The notes under the pieces: generated by a model
Told to the model about the DNA's origin: nothing
The model's database searches: none
Seen by the model: the letters and a program-made list of their open reading frames with translations, nothing else
Translations under genes and position numbers: made by a program
Assembly: GCA_040767195.1 (NCBI GenBank)
Contig: JAXGPA010000001.1
Span: forward strand, 512,001 to 576,000
Source of the DNA: Syntrophales bacterium
Lineage (GTDB): Bacteria > Desulfobacterota > Syntrophia > Syntrophales > UBA6807
DNA length: 64,000 nucleotides
Direction: 5' to 3'
In this document: positions 2,570-52,190 of the stretch, piece after piece
Position numbering within the stretch: the first letter of the stretch is position 1
Layout: every line of letters begins with the position of its first letter

Positions 2570-5281
2570 TTAGAAATCCCACGCCTCATCGAATGGGTGT
2601 TTTTTAATAGGCAACGTCGTTGAGGCCTTACCGGAAGCACCCGTCCCGTCGACCACCTCGAGGGTGATGACATGCTCGCCCTCGGAAAGCTGTTCCGCCG
2701 TCACCTCCATGCCCTGGCCGAGGGGACCGTCCAGGCTGGAAGACCAGGAGAAAACAGCCGTATCGCCGACGGGGACACCCTCCTCGTCATAAGCGGACCC
2801 GGTGAACGTGAGCGTCGGGTACTTGGTGTAGTAAACAAAGCTTCCGTCGCTGTCCTCTTGCGGCGACTTATTGACGGAAATCCGGACAACCAGTTCCCGG
2901 GCCGGCTTATCGACCCCCAGGGCGTTCAGGCTGTCCAGGAGGGCGCCGTAGGCGTTTACCTGGAGGGCGATGACGGCTTCGCTGGACGCATAGCGGATGT
3001 AATTCGCCGAAGAGACATCCGTTCCGAAGTAGTCATCGTTGACAAAGGCCACCTCCTTCGCGCCGGGCGCCAGGGTCAGTCCCTTCACGGCCACCTCGAG
3101 GCCGTCGTTGCTGTAAAGGGTCAGGGTGATCTCCGCCGGGATCTCCTGTGCGTTGAGAATGGAAATACCCGTCACGGCCGTATCGTTCAGAAGCGGCAGA
3201 ATGCCCGATTTCCCCTCGAGACGGAGGGACCGGGACCCGGAAAGAAGGGTGGCGCCGGTATTGGCAAAAAGCTCGAGGCCGTCGGCCAGTTCCTGATCGG
3301 AAACCACGGCGAGCCAGGACACGCCGGAGGAGAATCCCAACGCGCCGGGATAGGTCGTGTATTTCGAGCGGGCCTCCACGGAAACCTCCTCGGCCCCCAG
3401 GAACAGACCGGCATCGTCATAGGCCGTGATGGTCACCTGGGCGGCATTTTCCGACGGATTGACGAGGACCATCGCCGTCCGCCAGGTTCCATTTTCCACC
3501 ACCTGGGGGAAGATCTGTTCCGCGCCGGTGCGGCCCGAAATCAGGTAGGCCTCCATGGTGTGGGTGTTCATGATCTTCGCCATGGCGACCACGCCGCCCC
3601 GGGAGGGGCTCTCGTCCTTGACGATGAGATAGGACGCCCCGGAAACGGCGCCTTCGGGAAAAATCGTCCCCACGTCGACAAAGGCCTGCTGACCCGGTCC
3701 CAGGAAAAGGGGCCGGGATTCCTCGACCATCCCGTCGGCCAGGACGAGCCGAAGCGTTTTTTCCTCCCCCGTCGTGTTCACGAGGTCGACTTCCGTCGAC
3801 CACATGCTGTTGGAAGCGACCTGGCAGGCATACAGGTCGCCCTGTTCGGCCAGGGCACCGCTTCCCACCGCCGGCACCATGGCGCTGTACTTTTCGAAAG
3901 CGAAGAACCGGTTGCAGCCGACGACGGAATCACCGGAGGCGCGGAAAAGGGCGAACCCCTTTCCTTTCAGGCCGGCGTACTTGGGCTGTATCCCGTCGAT
4001 GATGAACACCTTCCTCTGAAGGGGATAGATGGTCAGTTCTTTTGGCTCGGCAGCCGCCGAGCCGTCCTGGTTGTAGACCTCGAAGGTGCCCCTCAGGGTT
4101 GTAACGCGGCTTGCGTTCACCAGGAAGATCTCGGTGCGCCACCCCTGTTCGGCGGTGACATAGGGGAAATAGAGGACATGGGGCCCGTTGACCGGTTTGG
4201 GGTCCTCCCCGGGATCCACCGGACCGGGCGGCGTCGGGGATGTTTCTGTCTGAACCGTGAACGCCATCTTGCTGACAGGCCCCGAACCCGACGAATTTGT
4301 CGGCTGAATCGACCACTCGTATGTCCCGTCGGCCAGGGCGTCGGGGATCCGGTAAGCGCACTGCCCGTCAGCGGTCACCTCATCGGCCCGGAGGGTCCCG
4401 CTGAAAGCGACGGAGGAATTTCCGCTTACGGCGAGCCGGTAGGCGGTGGCGCTTTTTTCCTCGGTCCATTTGAAAAGGGGCCTGTCATCGGAGGTCGTTC
4501 CGGAGGGCGAAATGAGCGTGACGGCCTTGGGCGGCCCTCCGACGGGAAGGCTGTGGGTCGTGAATGTGACATAGAAATTTTCGTAGAATCCCTCCTGATC
4601 GAATCCCGGATAGACGATCCCGATTCTTCCGGTCTCGTTCTCGAGGCCGGCTACGGTGTTGCCCTTGCCGCGGGAGTAGACCTTGATATAATTGAACTGG
4701 ATGTCGTTGGAGCCCTCATGAAGGACCATCTGGAATGTGACGTTGTAATCGTCTCCAAGCCCGGTAGACGAATCGAAACGAACATTTTTGAACTGAACGA
4801 TGAACTGTCTTTTTCCTGAAACCACCCGGGTTTCGTAGTACACCCTGTGCTTGTCCCCTCACGTGCCGCACGCGAACAGGTCATCCCAGAAGCCGGCGAT
4901 GACGCTGTTGATCGCATCCAACCGGTCGGGAAGACCGTTTCCCTGGTACGTCTGGCCATTGATGACGGCACCGGGATCGAAGGACAGGAGTCCGTTTGTG
5001 GCCACACTTACAGAACTGTAATACTGACCGTAAAAGTTGAAACGAAAACCAATGGGAATGTCGGGAACAACGATGTCTCCCGAAGTTCCTATCTGCACCG
5101 GTATTCCAGTCGACGTCCGCTCGATGTCCGTCCAGGAAAAAGCCGGAGCTCCTTCTTCGTGACTGTCGTAATACCGGTACCCGTAACTGTCAGGTCCCCC
5201 CGTCAGCGCCCAGGACAGAGCCGGCACGGACAGGAAGAGAACGAAAGAGAAGGCCAGGAATTTCATGACGGTTCTCTTCAT
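2570..5281 (-). CDS. Secreted multidomain surface protein and putative selenoprotein (~903 aa): signal peptide, nidogen-like domain with C-G-T-U, Fn3-like domain, four repeats of the shared surface domain, PKD-like C-terminus
   Basis: ORFs 4859..5281 and 2570..4843 share a frame and are separated only by TGA at 4859-4861 (...GAC CTG TTC GCG TGC GGC ACG TGA GGG GAC AAG CAC AGG GTG TAC TAC...). The TGA lies inside the nidogen-like motif FWDDL...VYYET. AGGAGG RBS before ATG 5281; signal peptide MKRTVMKFLAFSFVLFLSVPALSWA. Confidence 0.75.
4818..4834 (-). promoter_or_regulatory. Candidate bacterial SECIS hairpin for UGA at 4859-4861
   Basis: mRNA GAAACC-CGGGU-GGUUUC, a perfect 6-bp stem with a G-rich loop starting 30 nt after the UGA. 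Confidence 0.5.
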
Positions 5282-5412: not shown

Positions 5413-5428
5413 TGCAAGTAACATACCA
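5413..5428 (-). promoter_or_regulatory. sigma54 -24/-12 promoter
   Basis: Minus strand TGGTATGTTACTTGCA = GG-N10-GC with TTGCA, about 130 nt upstream of ATG 5281. Confidence 0.65.
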
Positions 5429-12076: not shown

Positions 12077-12493
12077 TCAGGCGCCGGGGAGTTTCAGGGT
12101 GGGGGTGAGATCGACGCGCCAGGCGCCCTTCTCCCATACCCACGTGTCCTTCGCTGTCAGGTCGAAGACGAACGCCTTTACCCCGACCCTGTATTTTACG
12201 GCCACCTCCGCCTTGTCTTCCTTATCGAGAAGGGTCACTTTCTCGATCTCGAAATGTTCGATGTTCAGGTTCGCCGACTTGACGAATCTCACCCGGGACA
12301 CTTGTCTCTTGAATTCCTCTGTGGCCAGATCGTAAGCAGCCCCCCATTCACCGTTCATTTTGGCCGTCCAGAACGCCGTCACGTTCTTCATGAGATTCGC
12401 CTCCGTCTTGCCGTAACCCAAAAGGCCGGCACAGGAGACCAACAGAAGAAGGCCAACGGCGCAGCACAAAACCTTTACCGCTCCATTCATCAT
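12077..12493 (-). CDS. Putative lipoprotein
   Basis: Lipobox LLLVSC after a hydrophobic stretch; ATGA overlap with the upstream gene. Confidence 0.75.
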   Translation of the reverse strand: MMNGAVKVLCCAVGLLLLVSCAGLLGYGKTEANLMKNVTAFWTAKMNGEWGAAYDLATEEFKRQVSRVRFVKSANLNIEHFEIEKVTLLDKEDKAEVAVKYRVGVKAFVFDLTAKDTWVWEKGAWRVDLTPTLKLPGA

Positions 12494-13647
12494 TTCGTTT
12501 CCCCTTGATCTTTCTGCAGCATGAGCTCCCTGTGCTTTTCCGAGAGTTCTTTCCAGAGTTTCTTCGCCTCCTCGAACATTCGTTTATCCACGTCCGCGTC
12601 CCTTGTTTTCATTTCTTCGGTGAGCTTCTTGTAAATGTCGTCCGGCGCGGACCCGATCATCCCGGCGATCCGCGGATCGCCCGGCACGGACCGGTCCAGG
12701 GAAACGATCCCGTTCTCCCCCGGGACTAATTTCCCCGTCTCTCCCCGTATGAGGGTGGCATAGCCGAGGTCCTTTCCCATGTAGTTGGCCCGGTAAACGG
12801 GAACGCCGGACGGGGCGTCACCGGGAGCCCCCGCTTCTGCTCCACCACCGGAACCGCCGCAGTCGCCCGTTTTTTCCTCGAAGGCCGCTGATCCGCCCCC
12901 TTCCGAAAACGGGGAGGCGTCGTTTCCGCAGTAGATGACGAGATCCAACCCCTTCAGTCCGTCCACGACTTCAAGGGTTTCCTTCCTGCCGCAGCTCGAA
13001 AGGAGAACGACCCCGTCCGCTTTTTTCCGCACTTCCGGGATGAGGCTTTCGAGAACGCTCCGGGGGGATGAGACTTGAAAGTTTTTCCCCTCTTCTCCCG
13101 TCAAGGCGGCGATGTTCTCCTGAAGCCTGGGAGGCAGGACACCGATGAAGGCGATCCGGGACTTTCCGGCCTCCACGACGGTGTAAGGCACCCAGAAGGG
13201 ATTCAAAGCGCCGCTATATTCAAGATTCGCCGCCAGGAAGGGAAAAGACGCCTTTTCTCTCACATGATTAAGAAAATCAATGCCATGGGAGAATTCGTTT
13301 TCGCCCAGATTGAGCGCCCTCACGTTCATCGCCCCCAGGGTGGTGACGCCCAGTTCCGCAAGGACCTGAAGTTCCTTAAAAGAATATCGGCTCACGGGAA
13401 AGAGGTTCCCCGCGTCCACCAGGATGACGGGACCCTGTTTTTTTTCCAGTTCATCGATAACCCACTGTGTTCGGGCCAGACCGCCCGAATTATTTCCCCC
13501 TCACCCTCGGACAGGCGTCAGCCGCCCGAGGAGGTCTCCCGTGTAGACAACGGTGACCCTCGTTTCCTCTTCGGCTGAAAAAACAACGGCGGGAAACAAG
13601 GCAATCGCGCACAGAACGAGGGCGCAGGCCCACATCTTTCTCATCAT
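12490..13647 (-). CDS. UshA-like (5'-nucleotidase N-terminal fold) secreted selenoprotein, Sec at about residue 49, ~385 aa
   Basis: ORFs 13501..13710 and 12490..13419 are one frame: ...YTGDLLGRLTPVRG-TGA-GGNNSGGLARTQWVIDELEKKQGPVILVDAGNLF... GGAGGAG RBS before ATG 13647; signal peptide; SECIS-like hairpin follows. Confidence 0.85.
13470..13489 (-). promoter_or_regulatory. Bacterial SECIS-like hairpin for UGA at 13501-13503
   Basis: mRNA UUCGGGC-GGUCUG-GCCCGAA, a perfect 7-bp stem whose loop starts with GG 18 nt after the UGA; GGUCUG recalls the E. coli fdhF SECIS apex. Confidence 0.75.
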
Positions 13648-13716: not shown

Positions 13717-16176
13717 TTATTCGGTGAGACCGTCGCCCATGAGGCGCGTTCCGTCCCCCGTGGCGATGAGGTAAAGGCCGCACAGGGGCGTGTCTCCCGA
13801 CGAGATCCTGACATAACGGGCCTCCCCGGCCAGGGCCGCTCCGAAAAGATTTTTCAGGGTTCCGGCGATGCGCTCCCGGGGATTCAGCCGGCCCGTCCAC
13901 GCGCCCAGGGGGGCGCCCCCGGCGTCGTGAAGGGTCATGGTCACGTCCGTTGCGCCGTCGGAGGGATTCAGGACGGCCACCCCCGTTCCCCAGGGACCCA
14001 GGCTCGCCACGTGGGGCAGGTGAAGGACAGGCCCCGTCGCGGGCGCCCGAAGGGGAACCCCCGCCAGCTGGCCTCCCGTATTCGTACTGAAGAGAACGCA
14101 CCCCGTCAGCGGCTCGCCTTCCCGGGAGGTCACTTCCAGGGAGGCGATCTCACCGGGTAAGACGCCGGGAAAGATATCCGGAACGTCCCGGACGAGATTC
14201 TGGCCCGGCTTCAGGAGGCAGCCCGCCTCGCCGAGGAGCCAGCCGTCGGCCCGGTAAGCCCGGAAGACCGCCCGGGTGTCCCCGGCGCCGCTGTTCATGA
14301 CGAGGAGTTTTGTCCGCCAGTAAGCGTTGCAAGCCACCTGGGGGGCAAAAAGACGGGTCCCCGCCCCCTCCCGTCCCAGGGGGACGAGGGCCGTGTCGCC
14401 CGTCGATGACGACTCGTATGAGAGCTTCATGTATCCCAAAAGGGACGGCCGGCCGCTCGTCGTCGCGGCGGTCATGGTGTTCCCTCGAACGGGAGAATTG
14501 GGAAGGACCCAGAGATCTTTCGTATTCGATTCAAGTTTCTGACCCGGCCCGAGGGTGACCGTGTCGGTCCGCAGCGGATGGCCCTCGGAATCGAAGGACC
14601 GCCGTTCCACCTCCTCCGTCTCGTCGCCCGTGTTGATGAGCCCGTAAAAGGTTTTCCACCCGCCCGATCTCGCTGAATAGGGAAAGGAGACCTGTTCGAC
14701 CGCCCCGGTTTGGGAAAGGAGATTGGCGCCGTAGAGAACGCTTTTCCCCTCCGATAAGGCGTTCAGTCCTCTCAGGGTCTCGTCGCTGTCCACCCGGACA
14801 TACCCGCCTCTCGTTGAACCGAGTCCGAAATCGGCCAGAGTCCCCCTGACCTGGGAATCGAGGCCGTTGAACTCGTGAGCCTCTTCAATCCGCCCGGCCG
14901 GATCGATGGTGGCCAGGATGACCCGGCCCAGGGACCCGTCGGGATTGAGAACGGCCATCCCGTTCCCCAGGCTTCCGCCGGGGTCGTCCGGAAAATAGGC
15001 CGTGTTTCCCAGGCGCACGCTGAGGTAGAGATCGTAGACCGGTTCGTAGTAGGTCGTGTCGGAATAATAATCGGGCCTGACGGGAAGAACCTCGAAATAG
15101 TAGTGACCGGCTGCGTACGCCGTCAGCTCCAGGACGTCCTGATGAAGCAGCGTTCCGAGACGCTGCCGGTCGGGATCGGGACCGTAGACCTGGACGATAA
15201 CCTGCCCTTCCCTGGGGGGCGTGCCCTCACCGTTCACCCGTTCCGCCGTGATCCGGTCCCCCGGACCGAGAAATACCTTGAAAAAGTCGGCATTGCAGGA
15301 CATGAGCCTCAGGTGGCCTCCCGGGACGGCCGCGGCCGTCTCGAAGGTGTCGTTCTCCTCGTAGCGGTCATCGTAGGTGTAAACGATGTCCCGGACCCGC
15401 GCGTAGTCGATGCCGGGGTTGAGGCAGTCCCGGACGGGATCGTAGGATGAAACCCCGGCGCTTCCCCTTTCCCAGCCGCTTCCGGTGATCCGGCTTCCCT
15501 CGAGGGTGAAGTAATAATAAAACGTTTTCGCCGCTATTTTCGATCCCACGTAGTCCGGGGAGACTTCGTCGGAAACATAGTAGACTTTCGTCGTGTAATG
15601 CCGGGTGCCGCCCTCTTCCGTGTAACCGGTCTCGTACTTGTAGACGGGGTAATTCCAGACCTCATCGTCGGTGCCGAGATCCATGATGAAGGGGAGACCC
15701 CGCTCTCTGATGTATTCCTCCAGAATGGCATGGAATTCTTCCGGTGTTTCCGTTCGCAGGCGGATGCTTTTCGTGTAGGCGTTGTCGTTCGCCACGGTGA
15801 GAAGGGCCTTCTTGTCGCCCACGTAAAAAATCGTTTCCCCGTAAAATCCGCCGTTTACCGGTTCTTCCTCGAGGATGGCCGCCGCCGCCCAGCAATAGCA
15901 CATTCCCTCCCAGTACTTGGCGAAAGGATTCCGGTAATACCTCATCCCGTAAGCCGTCGCTTCTCCCCCGTACGTTCCGGAGGTGACGAAATCATATTTC
16001 TCCAGCGGCGACGGATGGCCCCGGTAGGCAGCTCCCGTGACAAGCCCCCCCTGCCTGAAAGGCCACCAGTACCCGGACCAGGGCACGTAATCGGCCTCGT
16101 ACGTGTCCGCCGCGGCGGACAGGGGAAAGGCAAGAAGAAGGGCCAGAAGGACCGCCGCGATCGATTTCCCGCTCAT
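13717..16176 (-). CDS. Secreted protein: GP42/TGase_elicitor-like transglutaminase domain, PPC-like domain, four repeats of the shared surface domain
   Basis: Signal peptide MSGKSIAAVLLALLLAFPLSAAA (ATG 16176 overlaps the upstream TGA). Motifs PWSGYWWP, SPLEKYD, WEGMCYCWAAAAILEEEP, GDKKALLT, FIMDLGTDDEVWNYPV. Confidence 0.75.
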   Translation of the reverse strand: MSGKSIAAVLLALLLAFPLSAAADTYEADYVPWSGYWWPFRQGGLVTGAAYRGHPSPLEKYDFVTSGTYGGEATAYGMRYYRNPFAKYWEGMCYCWAAAAILEEEPVNGGFYGETIFYVGDKKALLTVANDNAYTKSIRLRTETPEEFHAILEEYIRERGLPFIMDLGTDDEVWNYPVYKYETGYTEEGGTRHYTTKVYYVSDEVSPDYVGSKIAAKTFYYYFTLEGSRITGSGWERGSAGVSSYDPVRDCLNPGIDYARVRDIVYTYDDRYEENDTFETAAAVPGGHLRLMSCNADFFKVFLGPGDRITAERVNGEGTPPREGQVIVQVYGPDPDRQRLGTLLHQDVLELTAYAAGHYYFEVLPVRPDYYSDTTYYEPVYDLYLSVRLGNTAYFPDDPGGSLGNGMAVLNPDGSLGRVILATIDPAGRIEEAHEFNGLDSQVRGTLADFGLGSTRGGYVRVDSDETLRGLNALSEGKSVLYGANLLSQTGAVEQVSFPYSARSGGWKTFYGLINTGDETEEVERRSFDSEGHPLRTDTVTLGPGQKLESNTKDLWVLPNSPVRGNTMTAATTSGRPSLLGYMKLSYESSSTGDTALVPLGREGAGTRLFAPQVACNAYWRTKLLVMNSGAGDTRAVFRAYRADGWLLGEAGCLLKPGQNLVRDVPDIFPGVLPGEIASLEVTSREGEPLTGCVLFSTNTGGQLAGVPLRAPATGPVLHLPHVASLGPWGTGVAVLNPSDGATDVTMTLHDAGGAPLGAWTGRLNPRERIAGTLKNLFGAALAGEARYVRISSGDTPLCGLYLIATGDGTRLMGDGLTE

Positions 16177-16880
16177 TCCGTCACCATCCCGTATTCCATG
16201 TCGGCGTTTCTCCCGAAAAGACAAAAGGGCCGCCCCTCTTCCCAGTACTGGGTGAAGATCTCCCGGCCGCCCTCGCCGGTGACCCGGATTTCGATGAGCT
16301 TACGGTCCCGGAGTAACGGCGGAACCCCGTCGGGGTTCGTCACTTCCCGGACTTCCTGGGCCAGGAGGACTTCCCGGTAGAGCCCGCCGCCCGCGGCAAT
16401 CTCCCGCCGGTACGTCCGTACCGAGGGCACCTGGGCGGGAAAGGCGGGGAAATCGAAGGGGACGAGGGATTTTTCGGCGACAGCGGGCGTCCCATCGGGG
16501 TATTCCAGGGTGAAGGTCACCGCCTTTCCCCGCCGGCTCTGGGTGAGGTCGGCCCGGACCAGGGACCGGGAACCGCTGAATTCCAGGCGGGCCGCCTGGT
16601 CCAGGCGCCCGCCGGCGTCCCGCACCTCCACCGCCGTGCCGCCCGGCACGGCGGCTTCCCGTGACGGGAGGGGGAGGAAACGCCAGGTAACCGGTTCGGA
16701 CCATTTCTCCCGATCCAGGGCCGAGCGGTAGACGGCCCGTACGAGCCAGGCCTGTCCCTCGCCGGGAATCACGGGCTGAAAGACCGCATCCGCCGCGGCC
16801 AGGAGTCCCGGCGCGAGGGCCAGGATCACCGCCAGCCCGGCGGCTGTCGCTTTTCTCTTGAATGACGCAAACCGTCCCAC
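16173..16880 (-). CDS. Hypothetical exported protein
   Basis: ORF track 235 aa with a signal-like N-terminus; translationally coupled to the transglutaminase-like gene. Confidence 0.65.
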   Translation of the reverse strand: MGRFASFKRKATAAGLAVILALAPGLLAAADAVFQPVIPGEGQAWLVRAVYRSALDREKWSEPVTWRFLPLPSREAAVPGGTAVEVRDAGGRLDQAARLEFSGSRSLVRADLTQSRRGKAVTFTLEYPDGTPAVAEKSLVPFDFPAFPAQVPSVRTYRREIAAGGGLYREVLLAQEVREVTNPDGVPPLLRDRKLIEIRVTGEGGREIFTQYWEEGRPFCLFGRNADMEYGMVTE

Positions 16881-20049: not shown

Positions 20050-22521
20050 CTATTTCGAGCCAGTCTCATGGGTGCTTTCTCCGGTGCCGGCGGCTTTCTG
20101 CCTTTTTTCCAGGTCTTCGAGAAGGCCCTTGAAGTCCGCCCGGTCCCGGAGACCGGCCAGGTCGCCGTCATTTGCAAGAAACGCCCCGTTTCGGAAACCT
20201 CTTTCAACGGCTTTTTTCAGGGCCGTCACGGCGTCTTCGTTCCTGCCCTGGGCCGCCCGAACCCGGGCGATCTGGTAAAAAGCCGTCACTTCGACACGGG
20301 AATCCCCCGTCATGGCCTCCCTGAAGGCCGTCACGGCTTCCTCGTATTCTCTTTGCCGGGCCAGGGCCGCGCCCAGGCTCATCCGGGCCTGCGCGTCATC
20401 GGGACGAATGCGGAGCGCCTCCCGGTAGGCCTTTTCCGCCTCCCCGGCCCTTCCCTGGATCATGCGCAGGTCGCCCAGGCGGCTCAAAGCATTCGGCGAG
20501 GGCGGATCCAGGCGGGCCGCCGCTTCCAGGTGATCCGCCGCCTCGTCGAGCCTTCCCATCCCCGCCAGGGTGACGCCGAGCCTTTCACGGGCCTGCTGGT
20601 AGAAGGGATCGAGGCGGACCGCTTCCCTGAGGCTGGCGATGGCGTCCTCCTGCCGCCCCAGGGCACCAAGAACCAGAGCCAGGTTGTAGCGGATCTGGGG
20701 GCTTCGGGGGTCCGCCACGGCGGCCCGGCTGTAGAATTTCAAAGCCTCCGCGGTGTCTCCCTTCCTGTAGAAGAGGTTCCCGAAACGGGCCAGCATCTCC
20801 CCGTCAACGCCGGTTTTCTCTTCCAGGAGTTTCTCATAAATGGCCCGGGCTTCCTCCACCCTGCCCAGCCTGGAATAGGCGCCGGCCAGGTTGATCAGGG
20901 CGTCGGGATAAGAGGGATGAAGGTCGAGGCTCTTGCGGAAAAGGGCTATCGATTCCTCCGCCTGGCCCGCCTTGAGCTTTTCCAGGCCGAGGTTGTTGTA
21001 GGCCCGTATGTTCCAGGGCGACTTGGACAGGACATCGCTCCAGAGAGTCGTCTCGTTCAGCCAGACACGGTTCCTGAGATGGGCCGCCGTCCCGTAGGAC
21101 ACGATGAGGGCGACAGCCACCGCCACGGCCAGGACGGACTGCCTTGAAAAGAGCCGGAAAAGCAGGTCCGCCAGGAAGAGGGCGAAGCCGAAGAGGGGCA
21201 GGTAGAGCCGGTGCTCGAAGAGGGCGTCCCGGATGGGAATGAGGCTCGATTCCACGGAAAGGGTGACGAAAAACCACAGGACGGCGAAGGCAAAAACGGG
21301 CCAGCGCCGGTTCTTCCAGACAGCCAGGGAAAGGAGGCCGACCAGGAAAAGAAAAGCCCAGGGCGTGACGCCCGTGAAAAAACCCTGGACGAAGGGCATC
21401 ATGTAATCGGCGTTCTGGTGGACGGGCAGGACGAAGAGCCTCAGATAGATGACAAGCACATTGAACTGGGTGAAGAGGTAGGTGGAACGGCTCACCAGCG
21501 TCGTTTCCCGGGTCAGCCCGTACGCGTCCTCCAGGAGATTCCCCCGGCCGGCGAGGAGATCCCCGAGACCGAAGACGAGAAGGCCTGAGACGATAAAAAA
21601 GAGCGCCGTTCCCCCGATCCAGGGAAGTTTTCGCTTCCAGTCGGCGGCGGAACCGCGGAAGCAGAAAAACTCCGCCAGGAGGAGGGCAAGGGGAAGGCTC
21701 ACGGCGTTCTGCTTGGAAAGGACAGCCAGAAGGCCGGAGAAAACGGCGAGGACGAAAAAGACGGCGGCCCTGGGATATGAAATCTCGGTCGCAACAGAGG
21801 CATGGGCCGGGAGGGCGGGAGCCGGGGAAACGTGCTCCGGCGTTTTCCTTTTTCTCTTTTTTCCGTCTTTCCCTTTTTCGGGGCTCTTCGCCGCGGTCCC
21901 GCCGTCTTCACCGGCGGGCACGATGCCGCTGTCCCGCCTCCCGAGGACGGCCATGCGGCCCCTCAGGTAGAACAGGACGGCAGCCATGTAAAAAAGGGCT
22001 GCCATGGACGCGTAGCGCTGGACCGTGTAGGTGACCGCCTGGGTCTGGACGGGGTGGACGACGAAAAGGAGCGCCGCGAAGAGGGAGCAGGCGGAAAGCC
22101 AAAGCGGGGGAAGCCCCCCTTCCCGGCCGTTTCCCTGGAAGATGTTCCACAGGAGGGTCCGGGCGAGAAAATAAACGACGAAACCGTTCAGGATATGGAG
22201 GAGGACATTCACCAGGTGATAGCCGAAGACATTCGTCTGCCCCGCCCAAAAATTGAGGGCGAAGGTGAAGTCGACGACACCTCTCGGCCTGAAAAGATTC
22301 TTTCCTTCGAGAAGACCGGTGAGATCCCGGATGGATCTGTTCTCCTCGATCAACTTGATGCCGTCGAAGACGAACTCGTTTCCGTAGATGTTTCCGTAGA
22401 CGATGAAAGCGGCGAGGGCGATGACGAAAAGATGAAACGCCCCGTGGTAAAAAATCCGCTCCCGCGGTTCCGGGCTCCCTTTTTTCAAAGTTTTCATTTC
22501 AGCCATTGGCCATATTCTCAC
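20050..22521 (-). CDS. TMTC-like GT-C membrane glycosyltransferase with C-terminal TPRs
   Basis: YGNEFVFDG, YHLVNVLLH, FVVHPVQTQAVTY, EHRLYLP, RNRVW followed by multiple TPRs. Confidence 0.85.
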   Translation of the reverse strand: MRIWPMAEMKTLKKGSPEPRERIFYHGAFHLFVIALAAFIVYGNIYGNEFVFDGIKLIEENRSIRDLTGLLEGKNLFRPRGVVDFTFALNFWAGQTNVFGYHLVNVLLHILNGFVVYFLARTLLWNIFQGNGREGGLPPLWLSACSLFAALLFVVHPVQTQAVTYTVQRYASMAALFYMAAVLFYLRGRMAVLGRRDSGIVPAGEDGGTAAKSPEKGKDGKKRKRKTPEHVSPAPALPAHASVATEISYPRAAVFFVLAVFSGLLAVLSKQNAVSLPLALLLAEFFCFRGSAADWKRKLPWIGGTALFFIVSGLLVFGLGDLLAGRGNLLEDAYGLTRETTLVSRSTYLFTQFNVLVIYLRLFVLPVHQNADYMMPFVQGFFTGVTPWAFLFLVGLLSLAVWKNRRWPVFAFAVLWFFVTLSVESSLIPIRDALFEHRLYLPLFGFALFLADLLFRLFSRQSVLAVAVAVALIVSYGTAAHLRNRVWLNETTLWSDVLSKSPWNIRAYNNLGLEKLKAGQAEESIALFRKSLDLHPSYPDALINLAGAYSRLGRVEEARAIYEKLLEEKTGVDGEMLARFGNLFYRKGDTAEALKFYSRAAVADPRSPQIRYNLALVLGALGRQEDAIASLREAVRLDPFYQQARERLGVTLAGMGRLDEAADHLEAAARLDPPSPNALSRLGDLRMIQGRAGEAEKAYREALRIRPDDAQARMSLGAALARQREYEEAVTAFREAMTGDSRVEVTAFYQIARVRAAQGRNEDAVTALKKAVERGFRNGAFLANDGDLAGLRDRADFKGLLEDLEKRQKAAGTGESTHETGSK

Positions 22522-24711: not shown

Positions 24712-26949
24712 TCACGGGACCTCGGGGATGTCATAATCGATGATCGTTTCCGCCTCCCCGTTCAGATCGAGTTTCACCACGCCGATGCCCTCGCCGAGCC
24801 AGTAGTAGAGAGGCGGCAACGCATAGGTATCGCTACCCACATAAGATATAAAAAAGGAGTTTTTAGACTTAATCTTGATGTCTTGGGAAATCCGGATGAC
24901 GTTCCGGTAAAGGGAATCCCGGCTCGTCACATCCTCGATACCGACGATGGTGGTCTTGATCTCGATGCTGAGCGGTATATCCATACTAAAAATACCGCTA
25001 GATACTCTTATTGTGGCCGTCGTCGTGTCCTCGTAGACCTGGCCGACCTGGATGTTCTTGGGTATATAAAGGAGCGGCGCATCGAAAAGGACGTCGCCGA
25101 TCGGCAGCGGCTGGCCACCATTTTCCCTTAAGACGTAGTACATGCCGTGAAACTTGATCCCGTCGGCATCGCTCGTGAAATACTGCTTCGTTCCCGTGTC
25201 GTACTGGTAAACCAGGGTGGTGGCCTCCGAAACCGGTTTCGTCCCGCTAATGTCCGTCCGGGTTTCTTCACCCGACTCCTTTTCGTAGGTCCACCAGCTT
25301 CCCAGCACGAGGGGAAAGTAGTCCGACGCCACGTAGGCGGAGGGGTCGACGGACACGGCGGCGGTGGCGCTTATCTCGCCAATTTCGGCGGTCACGGTGG
25401 CCGCGCCGACTTCCTTGCCCTTCACGAGGCCGGCCTGGCAGATCGAATTCTCCACCGAGGCGGTCCCGCTGTTCGACGAGGTCCAGGCCACCTGGTCCGT
25501 GATCTCCCGGCACGTCCCGTCGGAATACCAGCCAAAGGCGCCCAGGCTGGCGGTCTCATGGATTTTCAAGGCCAGGACGTCGGGCATGATTTCAATGGAC
25601 GTGAGCACGGCCGGGGCCGGGGCCGGGTTCAGGCTTCTGATCGAGTCCAGGGTCTGACCGTTGGTGGAGGCGTTCATCTGGAAGGCCACCACCTTGTCTT
25701 CCGACGCATAGGCCAGGTAGGTGGCCCCTTCAGGCTTTGTGCTGAAAAGATAGTTCATGGAAGCCAGCGGCTCGCCCACCGGAAAAACGAAGGCCACCCA
25801 TTTCTGCCGGGGCCCGAGATTAATAACGGTGCTGTCGATCACGTCTCCCCCGTCGTCACAGGCATCAACGTTGACGGATGTACTTTCGGCATTGTCGTTC
25901 ACAAAAACGACGCCGGTCGCCGCGGAACCCGTTTCGATCTTCGGCAGGATTCCCGTCGTGGCCCCTTCCCGGGGCCCCATGTATCCGGCCAGCTGCCTGC
26001 TGTGGGCGAAAAGCTCAAACCCCGAGAGGGGCCTGGTCGCCGTGATTTTGGCCCAGCCGTCGGTGATGCCCAGTGGCAGCGTGCTCGCCAGGCGACTGAT
26101 CCGTTCGCCCCCTTTCAGGAGAAGATCGACAGGGGGCCGGGCCGTTCCGCCCGTCGTAAAAGGGGAAACGGTGATCGTGCTGTCCTGGTAGCTGGTGTTG
26201 TAGGCCACGATCCCCGTGTTCCACCCTCCGGTCATGACGAGATGGGGGTAATAGACCTGAAGGGCCACCTGGTCGTCCAGGGGAATGCCGTCGAGGACCC
26301 GGCCGTTGGAAAAGAGGATGAGTCCGACGATGCCTTCGGCCCCCCGGATTTTGGCCGCGCTGATCCTGGGCTGGGGGGTATCGTCGAAAAGCGCTCTCAT
26401 GAAGAAAACCTCGTGGCGCCCGGCCGCCACGGATTTCGTCTTCGTGATGCCCGTATCGAACTCGAAGCACATGTCGATGGCGGCGTCCGTCGTGTTGACG
26501 ACGCTCACGCCCGTGGCCCAGGTGTCCGTTGAGGCGATGTGGGGAATGAAGATTTCCCCCCGGGCCGGCGATTGACTGGCCGGGATGGCGACGCTGTATT
26601 TCAGGGGATCCTGAAATTTCAGGTACCCCACGGCGTTATCAGAAGTGGTGGAAAAAACGAGGTAGCCGATCGTTTTCCCACCGGCATAATCCCGGACAAG
26701 GTCGGCGCCCCAGAAAACCCGCTTTCCCCGGGGCGGCAGGGTCACGTCGATCTGGTCGATGAGAGCGCCGCTGTCCTCGTGGAGATCCAGGGTTCCCGAG
26801 ACGGAATCGCTGTCGCTTCCGTTGATCAGGCCGATTTCCGTTTCCCAGTAAGCGTTACTGGCAAAGTGGGGATAATAGAGATCCCCGTGGGCCGGCGACA
26901 GGGCCGTGAGTATAAGAGCCAGGGCGGCGAAAGCGATTTTCTTTTTCAT
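24712..26949 (-). CDS. Secreted protein: four repeats of the shared surface domain, Big_2 Ig-like domain, C-terminal beta-rich domain
   Basis: Signal peptide MKKKIAFAALALILTALSPAHG; repeats LYYPHFASNAYWETEIGLIN etc.; Big_2-like ITDQVAWTSSNSGTASV...GAATVTA; YFPLVLGSWWTY. Confidence 0.8.
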   Translation of the reverse strand: MKKKIAFAALALILTALSPAHGDLYYPHFASNAYWETEIGLINGSDSDSVSGTLDLHEDSGALIDQIDVTLPPRGKRVFWGADLVRDYAGGKTIGYLVFSTTSDNAVGYLKFQDPLKYSVAIPASQSPARGEIFIPHIASTDTWATGVSVVNTTDAAIDMCFEFDTGITKTKSVAAGRHEVFFMRALFDDTPQPRISAAKIRGAEGIVGLILFSNGRVLDGIPLDDQVALQVYYPHLVMTGGWNTGIVAYNTSYQDSTITVSPFTTGGTARPPVDLLLKGGERISRLASTLPLGITDGWAKITATRPLSGFELFAHSRQLAGYMGPREGATTGILPKIETGSAATGVVFVNDNAESTSVNVDACDDGGDVIDSTVINLGPRQKWVAFVFPVGEPLASMNYLFSTKPEGATYLAYASEDKVVAFQMNASTNGQTLDSIRSLNPAPAPAVLTSIEIMPDVLALKIHETASLGAFGWYSDGTCREITDQVAWTSSNSGTASVENSICQAGLVKGKEVGAATVTAEIGEISATAAVSVDPSAYVASDYFPLVLGSWWTYEKESGEETRTDISGTKPVSEATTLVYQYDTGTKQYFTSDADGIKFHGMYYVLRENGGQPLPIGDVLFDAPLLYIPKNIQVGQVYEDTTTATIRVSSGIFSMDIPLSIEIKTTIVGIEDVTSRDSLYRNVIRISQDIKIKSKNSFFISYVGSDTYALPPLYYWLGEGIGVVKLDLNGEAETIIDYDIPEVP

Positions 26950-40155: not shown

Positions 40156-40202
40156 AATGTGTGTTTCACCTGTGTCAGCAATTAGCCATCCGTTACGCCC
40201 GC

Positions 40203-42631: not shown

Positions 42632-44974
42632 CTATTTGCTCTCCAGCCTTTTCCGATGCTCCTCGAACTGCCTGGTAACCGATTTCACCTTTTTCTTGAA
42701 TTCATCCGTCACCGCGTCCACGTCCTCCAGGCTCACGATGACCCGGGGTGTGATCATGATGATCAGCTCCTTCTTATTAGATACCTTTTTCTCACTGCCC
42801 GCCAGGAACCTCAGGACAGGAACGTCGATGAGACACGGAACGCCTCCGGCGGAATCGGATTTCGTCTCCTTGATGAGCCCCCCGATAACCAGGGTCTGAC
42901 CGTGCTTCACCGACAGGGTCGTGTTTACCGCCCGCTTCGTGAAAGCAGGATAGTCCTTGCCGGCCACCTTGACACTCCCCGCGGGATCGCTGACTTCCTG
43001 GCTGATGTCCATGGTGACCATCCCCGTGTCATTGATATGGGGTGTCACGGTGAGAAGAATACCCGTGTCCCGGTACTGAATCGTGGTCTCGAAAACGGGG
43101 GTCGTCGTCGATGACGTGGTTTCGTAGGACGTGCTCGCCACGGGGATTTCGTCGGAAACATCGATCTTCGCTTCCTTGTTGTCCGAGGCCAGGATGTGGG
43201 GAGAGGAAAGGACGTTGACCTTGTTGTCCGTGGCCAGGGCATAGAGGGCCGCCTTCCATCTTTCCGTCAGCTGAACGGCATACCTGAGTCCCCCCGTCGT
43301 CGCCCCGATGCCCGCTGACAACCCTCCCGTGAAGGAGGCCACCGGGTTTACATTGTCAAAAGTCCATTCCACGCCCAGATCCGTCGTCTTATCCAGGGTG
43401 ATCTCGGCGATGGTTGCCTCGATGAGGACCTGGCGGGGCATGATGTCCAGTTGCAGGAGCACCTTTTCAATGATCCGGTAGTCCCTCGGCAGGGCTTTGA
43501 TGATGAGGGCGTTCCGCACCTCGTCCGTGGTGATGCTCACCTCACCCCGGATAGCGCCGGACTCGCTTTCCGCCCCTCCCGCCGCCGACGGTCCCGGTGG
43601 CGGCGAGGCCGCTGCCGGTTTCGCCGCTTCCTCCGTCTTTTGAGCAACGGCGGCCATGGACAGGGGGTTGGTCGGTGTACGGACCCGGCTTGGAAGCTCC
43701 TCCTTCTTGTCCGTCTTCTTCTCCGTGAAGATGCTCTGGAGGAGTTCTCCAATCTGTTTCGCTTCCCCGTTTTTCACGAAATAGACGTATATCTGCGGTT
43801 CCGCCGCATCACTGGGGATATCCAGTTCCCGCAGGAACGAATCCATCTCATCGAGGACTCGTTTCTGCATCGAAATCAAGAGAATGGCGTTCAGCCTCTC
43901 GATGGGGACGATGCTCACGTCGTCCTTCTTGCCTATAGTATAGGAAGAGAGCACTTCCTTCAGAATTTTGGCCAGATCCTCGGCCCTGGTGTTCTGGAGA
44001 AAGTAAAACCGGTGGCTCACCCGCTCGAACAGATCGGCATCGAAAACCTCCACCAGCTTCAGGCACTTCAAGACGTTTATCCCCTTGTCCACCAGGAGGA
44101 GCAGGTTCGAGCCGTCATGGGCCAGGATCGTCCCGTCCGCTGAAACAAAAGGTGTCAGGATCTTGGTCATTTCCTGGACGGAAATGAACCGGAGGGGCAC
44201 GATCTGCATGATGACCCTCTGGTCCGGCGAAAGGTCTTCCTGATCCTCGCTATCCCGTATCAGGAGAGGCAGCCGCGTGCTTTCCTTCATTTTGATAATC
44301 CGGTAAAGACTCCCCTCCTTCACGGCGGTGAGGCCGTTGGCTTCGAGAATCTGGTAGAAAACGGGAAACAGGTCCGCCTTCCCCAGCATCCCCGCTGTGT
44401 GAACGGTCACCCGGCCTCCCACGCCGGGATCCATGATGTAGTTGAACGCCAGTATTTCGGAAAATGTCCGGATGACTTCATAGATGTCGGCATCATCAAA
44501 ATTGAGGGTCACGCCTCCCTCGGCCTCTTGTTTTTCCTCTTTCGAGGTCTCTTCCGCCACCGGCGGGACGGCCGCGGCGGCGGGTCTCTTTTCATCGGGA
44601 ACAGCCGTTGTCTTTTCTTCCGGTACCGGCTCTTTTTCCGGAACCTTTTCGCCGGGAGAAGAACCCCACGGAAAATAGGGCGTCTTTCCTTTCTCCTCCG
44701 GAGGGGCCGCCTGGGCTCCGGGCCGTGACACCTTCAGCTTCATGAACCCGAAGGGCGTGTTCACGTACTCGTATTCTCCCGATTCGTCCACGACCCTGTC
44801 AGGTGCAATGTCGGGAAGGGATTCCTTCGAAGCCTCCTGTTCGGTCGCTGCCGGACGGTCGCCGCCGGACGGGCCGTCGGGCAGCGCCTGTGATCTTTCC
44901 GCGGCGCATCCAGCGGATGCCATCATCAGAAGAAGACAGGCTATCACCCTTATCATTACCGATCCTTTGCTCAT
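42632..44974 (-). CDS. gspD: Type II secretion secretin
   Basis: Lipobox-like SAGC; LNFDDADI; LDIMPRQVLIEATIAE; YRDTGILLTVTPHIN; GVPCLIDVPVL. Confidence 0.95.
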   Translation of the reverse strand: MSKGSVMIRVIACLLLMMASAGCAAERSQALPDGPSGGDRPAATEQEASKESLPDIAPDRVVDESGEYEYVNTPFGFMKLKVSRPGAQAAPPEEKGKTPYFPWGSSPGEKVPEKEPVPEEKTTAVPDEKRPAAAAVPPVAEETSKEEKQEAEGGVTLNFDDADIYEVIRTFSEILAFNYIMDPGVGGRVTVHTAGMLGKADLFPVFYQILEANGLTAVKEGSLYRIIKMKESTRLPLLIRDSEDQEDLSPDQRVIMQIVPLRFISVQEMTKILTPFVSADGTILAHDGSNLLLLVDKGINVLKCLKLVEVFDADLFERVSHRFYFLQNTRAEDLAKILKEVLSSYTIGKKDDVSIVPIERLNAILLISMQKRVLDEMDSFLRELDIPSDAAEPQIYVYFVKNGEAKQIGELLQSIFTEKKTDKKEELPSRVRTPTNPLSMAAVAQKTEEAAKPAAASPPPGPSAAGGAESESGAIRGEVSITTDEVRNALIIKALPRDYRIIEKVLLQLDIMPRQVLIEATIAEITLDKTTDLGVEWTFDNVNPVASFTGGLSAGIGATTGGLRYAVQLTERWKAALYALATDNKVNVLSSPHILASDNKEAKIDVSDEIPVASTSYETTSSTTTPVFETTIQYRDTGILLTVTPHINDTGMVTMDISQEVSDPAGSVKVAGKDYPAFTKRAVNTTLSVKHGQTLVIGGLIKETKSDSAGGVPCLIDVPVLRFLAGSEKKVSNKKELIIMITPRVIVSLEDVDAVTDEFKKKVKSVTRQFEEHRKRLESK

Positions 44975-45028
44975 TTCCTGTTCTTACCTTTCACCGGGAT
45001 CCATCATTCCAAACCCGGTTTACCGTTC

Positions 45029-45757
45029 TCACTTCTTTCTTATTTTCATCTTTCCGAAGGGGGTGTCGATGGTTTCGAATTCCTCTTCCGCCTTCCCTTT
45101 CTTGCCCGGGGCGGTACCGGAAGCCGGCGGGGTGCCGCCTGTCTTCTCCCCCGCCGTGGAAGCGGAGGCCGTTCCCCTTTTCTCATCGCCAGCCGGCGCG
45201 ATCACCGTCGGTTTGTCATCAGGAACGGAAACGGCCTTCCGGGGCTTGTCTTCCCCATACAGGGCGATCTCGTATTCCTGGCCGTTTCCCTCGAGGAAAA
45301 CCTTGTCTTTCTCGATCCGGGACACCTTGAAGGCTCCATAGGCCTCCCCTTCCCGGATCCAGAGAACGTCACGCTCACGGCCTTTTTTCTCCAGGTTGGT
45401 GACAAGGGCTTTCCGGTATCCTTCCATGAGGACGATGCCGTACAGAACCACTTTCTTGCCTGGAATTTTGAGTTCCTCCACCTCGGGCTTGTCTTCCCCG
45501 GAAGGTTCCGGGGGCGGCAGGTATTCTTTCCGGTTCGGGGAGAAAATGTTTTTTTCGAGGACCGCCTCGTAGGTCGTTTCGGGCGGCATGGTCTCCCGGC
45601 TGATTTTTTTCTCCGGAGCCCGTTCCGCTGGTCTTTCCGAGACTTTGCTGTCCAGAACTGACCGGTCGTCGTCGAACCAGACGTCGGCCGCCTTGATCCC
45701 GGAAAAAACAACGAGGACAGCCAGGGCCAGATTGATGAGCCATATCTTGGGGATCAT
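45029..45757 (-). CDS. GspC-like T2SS inner-membrane protein
   Basis: N-terminal TM, NIFSPNR, LYGIV...ALV; lies between gspM and gspD. Confidence 0.6.
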   Translation of the reverse strand: MIPKIWLINLALAVLVVFSGIKAADVWFDDDRSVLDSKVSERPAERAPEKKISRETMPPETTYEAVLEKNIFSPNRKEYLPPPEPSGEDKPEVEELKIPGKKVVLYGIVLMEGYRKALVTNLEKKGRERDVLWIREGEAYGAFKVSRIEKDKVFLEGNGQEYEIALYGEDKPRKAVSVPDDKPTVIAPAGDEKRGTASASTAGEKTGGTPPASGTAPGKKGKAEEEFETIDTPFGKMKIRKK

Positions 45758-46320
45758 GATGCCGCCTTTCTCATGTATCCCGATACGATGATGTCCCCCT
45801 GCACCTGTTCGCCCTCCTTCCCCATGGCGCTTATCCGGACCCGTTCGAAAACGAGGAGCTTGGGCGACGATTCGATACCGTAGAGAACATCCCGGAGCTG
45901 ACGGGGGGAGCAGGTCACCAGGAACTGGACGGGAATGCGCAGGTAACTCTGTTCCTCCAGGTCCTCAGGTCGGAGGACCCGGACCGTCCTTATGTCCACA
46001 CTGGCTCTTCCCGTGATGTCCGCCAGGATATTCTGTATGTCCACCGCCGCCAGGGAGGGCGTGTCCCCGTTCAGAAGCCGGGAGTCGAACCGCTCCACCG
46101 TCCGGGTCAGGGCGAGGAGGCGGCCCTCCAGGTCCCCCGCGTTTTGGACCGTCTCGCGGTACTTGGAAATCTGTTTTGCCTTGACGAGGATCTCCTCGTC
46201 TCCCGGCCACAGCCCCGAAAGGGCGGGGTAAAAACGGTACACGAGGCCCATAAGCAGCAGGACCGCCCCGATGCCGAGAAGCCATTTTCGCTCTTTTGTC
46301 AGTTCTATTTTCCGGATCAT
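45754..46320 (-). CDS. gspM: Type II secretion protein M
   Basis: LTKREK-like N-terminus, TM, LYGIESSPKLLVFE; position in the gsp operon. Confidence 0.8.
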   Translation of the reverse strand: MIRKIELTKERKWLLGIGAVLLLMGLVYRFYPALSGLWPGDEEILVKAKQISKYRETVQNAGDLEGRLLALTRTVERFDSRLLNGDTPSLAAVDIQNILADITGRASVDIRTVRVLRPEDLEEQSYLRIPVQFLVTCSPRQLRDVLYGIESSPKLLVFERVRISAMGKEGEQVQGDIIVSGYMRKAAS

Positions 46321-46325
46321 GAGGG

Positions 46326-47708
46326 CTACTGTACCTTGAGGCCGATGCGGAATCTTTCTTTGCCGTCCCGCCCCTTGGTGATCGGGGACAGGAAGGCGAC
46401 ATCCCGGAACCGGGGCGCAGACTCGAGAAGGGGAATCAGGTTTGACGTGGTGTCGGCATATCCCTCGATTTCAACGGACCCCGCCGAGAGGGAAAAACGC
46501 TGTACCCAGGCTGTCTCGGGGAGGATCGCCGTTATTTCCTTCAGGATTTCAAGCAGCGGCAACCGGTTTGCGGAGATCCCATTGAGGAAATCGATCTCAT
46601 CCTCGAGGGTCCGGACCTGTCCCTGGAGACGCTCGATCCTCCGGACGTCCTTGGTGAGGCTCTCCAGTTCCCCGTTCAGCCGGTCCATGAGGACTTTCTG
46701 GTGAAGGACGGCGCTTCCCAGCCAGCCCGCCGTGGCCAGAATCGCCAGGAAAGCCAGGATGAAAAGGGCGTAATATCCCGCCCGGCTCGCCTTCTTCCGG
46801 AGTTCCGGGGGCAGGAGGTTAACGTTCAGGGGAACCTTTCGCACCCCCTTGAGGGCCAGGCCGTAGGCAGGGATGAGGGATGGCGACTTCAGGCCCCGGG
46901 CGGCGGCGTTGACGCCGTCGACCCGGATGTTCCCCGCTTCCGCCAGGTCCCGGAGGATTTCCTCGCCGAAGGGCTCACCGGCGCAAAGAACCGGCGGAAG
47001 GGACCCGTCAGGGCTCTTCCCCCGGAGTTCCGAAATAATGGACGCCGCCTTTTCCAGTGTCGCCTCCCGCCCGCCGTCTCCCCCATGGACCGCCTTGGAG
47101 AAAACCACCTGGTTTTTGCGCAGCAGGCTCCCTTCCAGGTAACCGTCGCCGGCGAAGAGGATGGCCCTCTCCGGGGCCTCGGGCACATCCCTGTCCGTGG
47201 CGATGTAGTTGACCAGGGCCGAGGAGAGGGTTTCCACGCCCGAGAGGCCCGGGCCGATGGTCTTCATGAGATCGATGTAAGGTTCCGCCGCTTTCTTCCG
47301 GACGACGGTCAGAAAAGCGCGAAGCTGGCCGTCTTCCCGCTCCTCCTGAATGACCCGGGCGTCGAAATGGACGGTGTCGGCGGCGAAAGGCGTAAATTTT
47401 TCCATCTCGTAGCCCACCGTCTCCCGGAGATTCTCCCGGGCGGCCGATGGAAGCTCGATAAGCCGGGAAAGGATTTCCCGCCGGGGGAGGGCCATGTAGA
47501 CCTCGGCGGACGGAGGAACATGGTTCGTCTCCAGGAAGGTCTTGATGTGTCCGCACAGGGCCTGCATCCGCTCTTCCGGGGAAGAGGATTCCGCGAGGGA
47601 AAGGGCGAGCTGGTCCGCCAGGACAATGCCCCGGAACGAGCTTTTGAGAAAAACCAGGCCGAGGCGGTCCTCCTCGATATGTATTCCAAGACTGGATTGA
47701 AAAAGCAA
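46326..47708 (-). CDS. gspL: Type II secretion protein L (PilM/PilN-like)
   Basis: YEMEKFTPF, VNLLPPE, TM, C-terminal LIPLLESAPRFRDVAF. Confidence 0.8.
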   Translation of the reverse strand: MLFQSSLGIHIEEDRLGLVFLKSSFRGIVLADQLALSLAESSSPEERMQALCGHIKTFLETNHVPPSAEVYMALPRREILSRLIELPSAARENLRETVGYEMEKFTPFAADTVHFDARVIQEEREDGQLRAFLTVVRKKAAEPYIDLMKTIGPGLSGVETLSSALVNYIATDRDVPEAPERAILFAGDGYLEGSLLRKNQVVFSKAVHGGDGGREATLEKAASIISELRGKSPDGSLPPVLCAGEPFGEEILRDLAEAGNIRVDGVNAAARGLKSPSLIPAYGLALKGVRKVPLNVNLLPPELRKKASRAGYYALFILAFLAILATAGWLGSAVLHQKVLMDRLNGELESLTKDVRRIERLQGQVRTLEDEIDFLNGISANRLPLLEILKEITAILPETAWVQRFSLSAGSVEIEGYADTTSNLIPLLESAPRFRDVAFLSPITKGRDGKERFRIGLKVQ

Positions 47709-47735
47709 CCGTTCCTCCCCGTTATTCCGACGCCG

Positions 47736-48725: not shown

Positions 48726-48730
48726 GACCC

Positions 48731-49378: not shown

Positions 49379-49473
49379 GGCGATTTTTGAAGCAGACTCC
49401 ATTTTGCTGCCGTACGGTCGGAGAGGCTTCATTTTCGCCATTGTCCCCGCTCCGGAATCGCGACGCCGGTCCA

Positions 49474-50485: not shown

Positions 50486-50497
50486 GGCGTTCCTCGG

Positions 50498-50929: not shown

Positions 50930-50942
50930 TGTTTCTCACCTC

Positions 50943-52172: not shown

Positions 52173-52190
52173 TTCAATATCTTAAAAAGG

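Follow-up and report, generated by a model that had tools for sequence, protein, structure and literature searches.

At one locus of a Syntrophales bacterium, a single TGA codon interrupts what would otherwise be one long open reading frame (ORF), and the question is whether this codon ends a short protein or encodes selenocysteine (Sec) within a long one. The stretch of DNA that we analysed, called the window throughout, comprises 64,000 nucleotides (GenBank assembly GCA_040767195.1, contig JAXGPA010000001.1, positions 512,001 to 576,000), and the gene lies on its minus strand. An earlier sequence-only reading had joined two ORFs here into one exported selenoprotein of about 903 amino acids (aa) that it did not recognise from any described family. 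Translation with TGA as Sec (U) confirms that 2570–5281 (minus strand) is a single 903-aa frame broken only by the TGA at 4859–4861 (residue 141, in the context FWDDLFACGT-U-GDKHRVYYET), which leaves plain ORFs of 140 aa upstream and 757 aa downstream. Comparison with homologues makes it, in our judgment, nearly certain that this UGA is decoded as Sec through SelB and a bacterial Sec insertion sequence (bSECIS).

A sequencing error is ruled out by further copies of the gene. Databases hold its protein as the 140-aa fragment, and all 14 members of the 90% cluster of this fragment stop at the identical residue. The TGA is also present in two metagenome contigs of 98% identity, and the site is bridged unchanged by X3, a contig from an RNA library, and X5, a DNA contig from a second study, with every difference lying elsewhere; X3's study may be the window's own source, and the contigs carry no information on the level or strand of transcription. 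Two more contigs add less, since X18 ends short of the site and only part of the 40 differences of X6 are listed. In a 98%-identical strain, the part behind the TGA has stayed whole: 761 codons align, of which 39 differ synonymously and 38 non-synonymously. The downstream frame is open in every carrier. The 140-aa ORF has an AGGAGG ribosome site at its ATG, and the GTG of the 757-aa ORF starts inside a folded domain (the NIDO-like domain described below) with no comparable ribosome site. Only three other short relatives were found (P0152–P0154), ending 7 or 8 residues past the conserved Trp of that domain. The TGA is neither an error nor a chance pseudogene. Genome-wide reassignment of UGA was rejected as well: of the long six-frame ORFs, which number about 2340 with shadows counted in, 1518 are terminated by TGA, as are many of the window's genes.

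What carries the argument is how this codon behaves across homologues. Loci came from four contig scans, three of genomes and one of metagenomes, and from searching whole genomes, 339 from the order and 401 from the phylum. Of the 226 distinct NIDO-like cores for which there is DNA, 22 are interrupted by a stop within the domain (they fall into 20 clusters at 90% identity), and each of these stops is a TGA: 20 lie eight residues past the conserved Trp (Trp+8) and two, both from this species, at Trp+9, with no TAA, TAG or off-site TGA. Partial domains not spanning the site were left out of the 226, among them L137, a Sec copy truncated at its 5' end, and L231, a fragment containing two TAG; a fragment with one TAA in genome G407, listed with no locus, also stands outside the count. 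The TGA carriers are about 31–45% identical to the window's domain, and their record titles name Syntrophales, Thermodesulfobacteriota, Deltaproteobacteria and one Phycisphaerae bin; the 4-kb contig of the latter may be misbinned, and that genome is without selA and tRNA-Sec. In three genomes (family f82; L208–L210, L232–L234) two NIDO-like domains stand in tandem with TGA and hairpin in the first alone, and these pairs are an internal control for the TGA.

The expectation that homologues would show either TGA or Cys at this column holds within the clade and not beyond it. One member inside the Sec branch (L129/P0093) has Cys (TGC) at Trp+8, and together with the 18 Sec domains then known it forms one branch (support by Shimodaira–Hasegawa-like approximate likelihood ratio test, SH-aLRT, 99) in a quick tree built from 74 of the 195 domains, namely the 70 with the best scores and every row with Sec or with Cys at Trp+8; L124 sits on a long branch there. 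In the wider NIDO-like family (9918 representatives, E<=0.001) the column is mostly a gap, Gly or another small residue, and Cys occurs at Trp+7 to +9 in only 6 of 685 non-Sec cores; it is therefore not the usual catalytic column shared by Cys and Sec. The CxxU motif, which had been put forward as the defining redox feature, fails as a family motif, being confined to 2 of the 22 TGA domains, both from this species. UxC is found in another two, and Cys at Trp-20/-21 in five, one of which also has UxC. A Cys near the Sec occurs in nine domains, at Trp-20/-21, +6 or +10, and 11 have no Cys anywhere in the domain. Cys at Trp-23 to -17 was rejected as an obligatory partner (5/22 Sec domains vs 75/679 without Sec or Cys).

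The second line of evidence is the hairpin that had been noted at a bSECIS-like distance behind the TGA, which proves to be conserved in the family with compensatory changes. In the Sec clade, a conserved YETRGVS-like peptide is encoded by codons that fold into an 8-bp stem whose loop is GGG or GUG. Pairs were counted in 14 of the 18 sequences, leaving aside three near-duplicates as well as L124, whose 7-bp hairpin is another one. In this count, 90% of cells paired and five of the eight pairs showed two-sided changes; not one of the 500 shuffles or of the slid controls scored as high, a result that is not to be read as a probability because the structure was read from the same, related sequences. 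The third positions of the Glu and Val codons covary synonymously (A-U in seven, G-C in six), and two members found later, L217 and L207, bring further two-sided changes. Of 18 Sec domains, 17 show a stem of at least 6 bp at the hairpin's position, as against 42 of 177 non-Sec domains. The family hairpin is absent from the Cys orthologue, which yet keeps its Cys, so that chalcogen chemistry at this position appears to be selected. At family level, the hairpin fits the bSECIS geometry of a 4–16 bp stem, a 3–9 nt loop with G and a spacing of 16–37 nt; these values, together with a stability limit of -7.5 kcal/mol or lower, are given in PMC13188914.

Decoding also needs a machinery, which was sought in the window's own genome (G000; 2.39 Mb, 13 contigs, 98.8% complete). 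The sequence-only reading had made its case depend on this, and the outcome is divided. Both selA and selB are intact, and four of nine molybdopterin-enzyme matches have TGA at the Sec site of formate dehydrogenase, with hairpins. Neither selD nor tRNA-Sec was found by Rfam, hidden Markov models, BLAST with the genes of relatives or a motif scan, and setting the ARAGORN threshold very low produced nothing but noise for tRNA-Sec; the one trace found is a decayed 39-nt 3' fragment of tRNA-Sec (C1:720241-720279, in L019). This fragment adjoins low-GC and toxin-antitoxin-like genes and resembles an old integration scar. At the ARAGORN default, G000 is also without tRNA-Ser and tRNA-Asn (one of each appears at a relaxed threshold), and an assembly gap is accordingly the likelier cause, actual loss of selD and tRNA-Sec being less likely. 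Among 20 relatives, selD is present in 15 and tRNA-Sec in 16; as for the other carriers, 11 of 12 have selA, 5 of 7 have tRNA-Sec and 3 of 5 have selD.

Critically speaking, several observations besides the missing selD and tRNA-Sec weigh against our overall explanation of the codon and of the protein's surface role, set out below. The carrier G245 likewise yielded neither of these two genes, and the carrier G340 neither selA nor tRNA-Sec. The window's own hairpin, whose loop begins 30 nt past the TGA, is weak: it has one mismatch and two extra codons ahead of the stem, its energy is -6.3 kcal/mol and its pair probability 0.05, and the same region has a competing fold of -10.7 kcal/mol with a 10-nt loop. 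Fold searches with the NIDO-like domain gave no match at E<=0.001 (best Z 5.0, root-mean-square deviation (rmsd) 4.6). Finally, the distribution is patchy. Only nine of the 339 genomes of the order match the profile, five of them with the TGA form, and the gene has no match in nine other genomes of its family. A search of 40 relatives with the single protein likewise gave no match. This patchiness marks the gene as an accessory trait and not a universal coat component.

The features of the gene and of its surroundings are collected in the following table.

Features of the selenoprotein gene and its surroundings (window positions unless another contig is named)
Feature	Position	Strand	Basis or remark
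Gene for exported selenoprotein, 903 aa, Sec141 (predicted)	2570..5281	-	Single-TGA frame; TGA kept in homologues
In-frame TGA, predicted Sec	4859..4861	-	TGA at Trp+8/+9 in relatives; TGC in one clade member
Cys138 of CxxU	4868..4870	-	Species-specific; 2/22 TGA domains
bSECIS-type hairpin	4818..4834	-	6-bp stem, 5-nt loop; coded by conserved YETRGVS-like peptide
Signal peptide, residues 1-25	5207..5281	-	Basic start, hydrophobic core, SWA end; judged by eye
NIDO-like all-beta domain, residues 26-242	4556..5206	-	Sec on loop after conserved IAxxWxxL strand
Immunoglobulin (Ig)-like spacer, residues 262-344, then Pro-rich linker	4250..4498	-	Pfam Big_13, E 1.1e-7
Four ASRT/TM1070-like (ASRAH-type) beta-sandwich repeats	2918..4183	-	Predicted sugar-binding surface anchor
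Sigma-54-like promoter motif, candidate	5414..5428	-	Regular expression, GG-N10-GC spacing
Small lipoprotein-like gene	12077..12493	-	Always follows UshA-like gene
UshA-like selenoprotein gene	12490..13644	-	TGA 13501-13503, 7-bp hairpin, RGU in place of CxU
Transglutaminase-elicitor-like exported protein with C-terminal shared repeats	13717..16224	-	Pfam TGase_elicitor E 5e-12, below cut-off
Membrane protein with TPR repeats	20050..22521	-	TPR families
Exported protein, ASRAH-like repeats and Big_2	24712..26949	-	Pfam, repeat comparison
Sigma-54 activator and sensor kinase	38785-41609		
Type II secretion system (T2SS) set (D, M, L/PilN, K, pseudopilins, G, F, E)	42632..53747	-	Pfam
Second Sec protein (predicted)	G000 C1:503325-505460 = L236:8326-10461	-	About 6.5 kb past the window's left edge

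The protein itself is built as an exported, modular surface protein. In its homologues, the conserved domain starts at the same LTGGPD that follows the signal peptide here. As to the nidogen-like nature proposed for this domain, Pfam NIDO matches at E<=0.05 in 65 of 103 aligned relatives (including 10 of the 12 other Sec rows), and not in the window's own copy, which has no PF06119 match. Taken with its relatives, the domain resembles NIDO (PF06119) and RemA (8gl6_D, profile match at E 1.8e-21) in its profile, in an IAxFWxDL-type motif and in its extracellular multi-domain setting; the wider NIDO family, in contrast to the Sec clade, has no conserved Cys or Sec at the loop. An AlphaFold model (predicted local distance difference test, pLDDT, 91) is almost all beta with one short helix and places the Sec in a loop between domain strands 102-107 and 121-129. 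A two-copy complex model of the Cys orthologue's domain (score 0.02, mark 0.42) is evidence neither way. At the place of the window's Big_13 spacer, homologues have PKD, Cu-binding_MopE or other domains. The four repeats that follow match Pfam DUF5719 and, weakly, ASRT; a repeat model (pLDDT 92.5) superposes on 1nc7 (Z 13.9, rmsd 2.2, 103 aligned) and 2ii7 (Z 10.8), and a Trp at the strand start and an Asn after it are conserved. They are thus like the ASRAH superfamily (ASRT, TM1070) in fold, in these residues and in occurring as tandem copies in secreted proteins; the account of that superfamily in PMC2739507 offers sugar binding as a prediction only. Unlike known ASRAH proteins, they form a shared C-terminal module of four tandem copies under varied passenger domains. 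This domain order is kept, with varied spacers, in most Sec homologues having enough sequence; L124 and the Cys orthologue differ in their ending, the latter closing with a CFI-box-CTERM domain.

These genes represent a real and apparently undescribed family of exported selenoproteins. Neither the joined protein nor its L029 homologue hits an NCBIfam family at E<=1. No NIDO or ASRAH entry stands among the 119 bacterial selenoprotein families in Table 1 of PMC13188914, and the portions covered of PMC9312934 (much of its table included) and of PMC12013277, together with a term search of the latter's four supplements, gave no such selenoprotein. In the literature covered, which includes few subscription papers, the family is undescribed, though an unnamed hypothetical protein in the supplements of PMC13188914 or PMC9312934 could be a member. 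[quoted passage not shown] A thioredoxin-like or AhpD fold, sought in view of the CxxU redox selenoproteins (thioredoxin-like, AhpD-like, GrdA), was found neither in the model nor with Pfam or NCBIfam.

The gene does not stand alone. Genes for glycosyltransferases, Wzm/Wzt, a flippase, an MBOAT protein, exported proteins, a sigma-54 two-component pair and a T2SS make up the window, which forms one long cluster on the minus strand. The candidate sigma-54-like motif upstream of the gene, found with a consensus that we take to be that of sigma-54, recurs in 5 of 19 loci scanned (the window, L127, L118, L135 and L119, two of them from this species); a scan for sigma-70 promoters and terminators gave nothing above shuffles. 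The repeat module is common to three more proteins of the cluster, and one protein elsewhere has a weak copy. The UshA-like neighbour had already been credited with a UGA and hairpin, and both hold up in all five copies examined, four of which have xGU without the usual Cys. It matches NF041198 (E 2e-34) and NF049981, both below cut-off, and weakly SoxB (TIGR04486, E 2.6e-10); like NF041198 and NF049981 it has TGA at the motif, while it is shorter than NF041198 and mostly without Cys. Among the 22 loci searched for neighbours, many of them with short flanks, the UshA-like gene lies beside the gene for the NIDO-domain selenoprotein in five (four by BLAST, L042 by NCBIfam), the small lipoprotein gene in the same five, a transglutaminase-like homologue in three and a homologue of the TPR membrane protein directly downstream in three. 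The transglutaminase-like protein has a G-x-C-x-x-W-A motif whose Cys we take to be catalytic and could be a coat cross-linker. The TPR protein is presumably TMTC/GT-C-like.

A second Sec protein follows outside the window. Its TGA comes directly after the signal peptide and is followed by a small Ig-like domain (presumably of the InlB B-repeat type), a rhodanese domain and ASRAH-like repeats. The N-terminal part is matched in 14 of the 339 genomes of the order, 10 of which (including G000) have a TGA at that place, whereas the other four match only a generic repeat further in. Its hairpin is conserved (5–6 bp, with one compensatory change), a Cys stands at the far end of the small domain in seven of ten members and next to the Sec in two, and the rhodanese fusion occurs in one of ten as far as the sequence goes; NCBIfam finds only rhodanese matches in the G000 copy. 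This is probably a second undescribed selenoprotein family. As in the multi-selenoprotein operons SAO and Tso, described in PMC13188914, unrelated selenoprotein genes are clustered here; unlike in SAO and Tso, all three have signal peptides and lie among T2SS and glycosylation genes, with no families in common.

What, then, would the Sec be for? We give an even chance to a structural answer, in which a lone exposed selenol is a covalent attachment point that makes Se-S or Se-Se links in a surface coat. The protein would be exported by its signal peptide, probably crossing the outer membrane through the adjacent T2SS, and the four ASRAH-like repeats would hold it on a surface glycan. The N-terminal NIDO-like domain would then present one Sec on a variable loop, and the selenol would bond with another surface protein or a component of a partner cell; a nearby gained Cys, such as Cys138 here, could cap the site by joining the Sec in an internal Se-S bond. 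Such a role appears most likely because the fold dispenses with the residue and half of the family is without a domain Cys. It is favoured further by the lack of a conserved partner Cys or redox fold, by the Cys that is kept when the hairpin is lost, and by the company of other exported lone-Sec proteins and a cross-linking-type enzyme with which the gene travels. Reduction breaks Se-S and Se-Se bonds less readily than disulfides, an advantage that would count where habitats are sulfidic and methanogenic. Sequencing runs with the gene derive from digester, sludge and marine-sediment samples. On how stable diselenides are, the passages covered of PMC10779653 offered no figure that could be used.

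According to PMC13188914, redox catalysts make up most of the characterised selenoproteins, and this prior counts against an attachment point and for a Sec that cycles at the cell surface as a redox or sulfur/selenium-transfer site. Such a Sec might serve as a sink for oxidants, or else as a carrier that the cluster's UshA/SoxB-like hydrolase and rhodanese domain load and unload. Cys recurs near the Sec in nine domains at varied positions, as resolving cysteines would, and the weak SoxB match of the neighbour and the rhodanese domain on the second Sec protein of G000 point the same way. However, half of the family has no Cys, the rhodanese fusion is seen in a single second-family member, neither a thioredoxin-like or other known redox fold nor a conserved catalytic context surrounds the Sec, and no supply of reductant to the cell surface was identified. 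On balance we find this alternative doubtful.

Binding of soft metals or mineral surfaces (Cu, Hg, Ag, FeS) by an exposed selenolate, for adhesion, scavenging or detoxification, would also suit a lone exposed Sec, to which several members add a nearby His or Asp. Cu-binding_MopE-type repeats follow the domain in three scanned homologous proteins, and Table 1 of PMC13188914 lists Sec in the organometallic systems SAO and HgcAB. We consider it unlikely, given that no second ligand is conserved across the 22 domains and that no metal transporter gene was seen beside homologues, save for one TonB receptor in the window. Less probable still is a UGA that acts mainly as a selenium sensor, so that selenium would yield the full anchored protein and its lack a short secreted fragment, with the chemistry of the residue being secondary. 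The column is indeed dispensable in the wider family, the UGA comes early and upstream of the anchoring module in both new families, and the window's hairpin is weak; yet the sole non-TGA clade member has Cys and not an arbitrary residue, and in the second family a Cys of the same domain usually accompanies the Sec. That there is no read-through in this species (selC and selD having been lost), or that the UGA is a plain stop giving two proteins, is very improbable despite the gaps in the machinery and the weak hairpin, since selA and selB are intact, TGA and hairpin are kept in four of the nine molybdopterin-enzyme genes, other tRNAs are missing too at the ARAGORN default, most relatives have selD and tRNA-Sec, and a plain stop would split a folded domain in front of a frame that is open in every carrier.

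Should the attachment reading be right, a wider picture can be sketched, which we put forward only tentatively: syntrophic and related anaerobes would wear a secreted, glycosylated coat in which Sec fastens the subunits to one another or to partner cells. At least three exported selenoproteins would contribute, two of which (with NIDO-loop Sec and with N-terminal Sec) belong to undescribed families. Bacteria would thereby put selenium to a structural use outside the cell, replacing disulfides where sulfide would break them, and the supply of selenium could gate aggregation. Communities in digesters and sediments depend on selenium, and a linking role for Sec offers a testable route for this dependence, with selenium acting directly on surface assembly in their syntrophs. 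In any case, a catalogue dominated by redox and metal enzymes gains one well-supported family, and probably two, of an unusual type: exported, adhesin-like, with Sec on a dispensable loop and almost no Cys orthologues. The deep-Sep method filters out proteins without Cys homologues, as stated in PMC12013277. More proteins of this kind may hide as split genes, as methods that require a Cys homologue drop them.

A few minor observations complete the picture. A Cys-rich exported gene of the window (16966-18318, minus strand) seems disrupted, with a tandem duplication of 16 nt around 17613-17644 and a TAA codon at 17560-17562; this may be an assembly artefact, phase variation or a pseudogene, and the piece downstream looks like a single repeat of the shared module. 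Outside the cluster, G000 C1:858321-860024 (minus strand) encodes an exported protein with beta-propeller-like repeats, presumably of the LVIVD type, and a weaker copy of the module. In one carrier, a multiheme cytochrome c554-like gene (L217:3088-3636) lies two genes upstream of the selenoprotein gene. A first genome-wide scan for read-through gave 466 candidates and was swamped by antisense shadows; a stricter one gave 49, mostly adjacent genes, regaining three of the four formate-dehydrogenase-like sites and leaving the window's site unlisted. Further candidate Sec codons from the stricter scan lie at G000 C1:839017 and 839344 (+), C6:98712 (+), C10:17941 (-) and C1:930856 (-).

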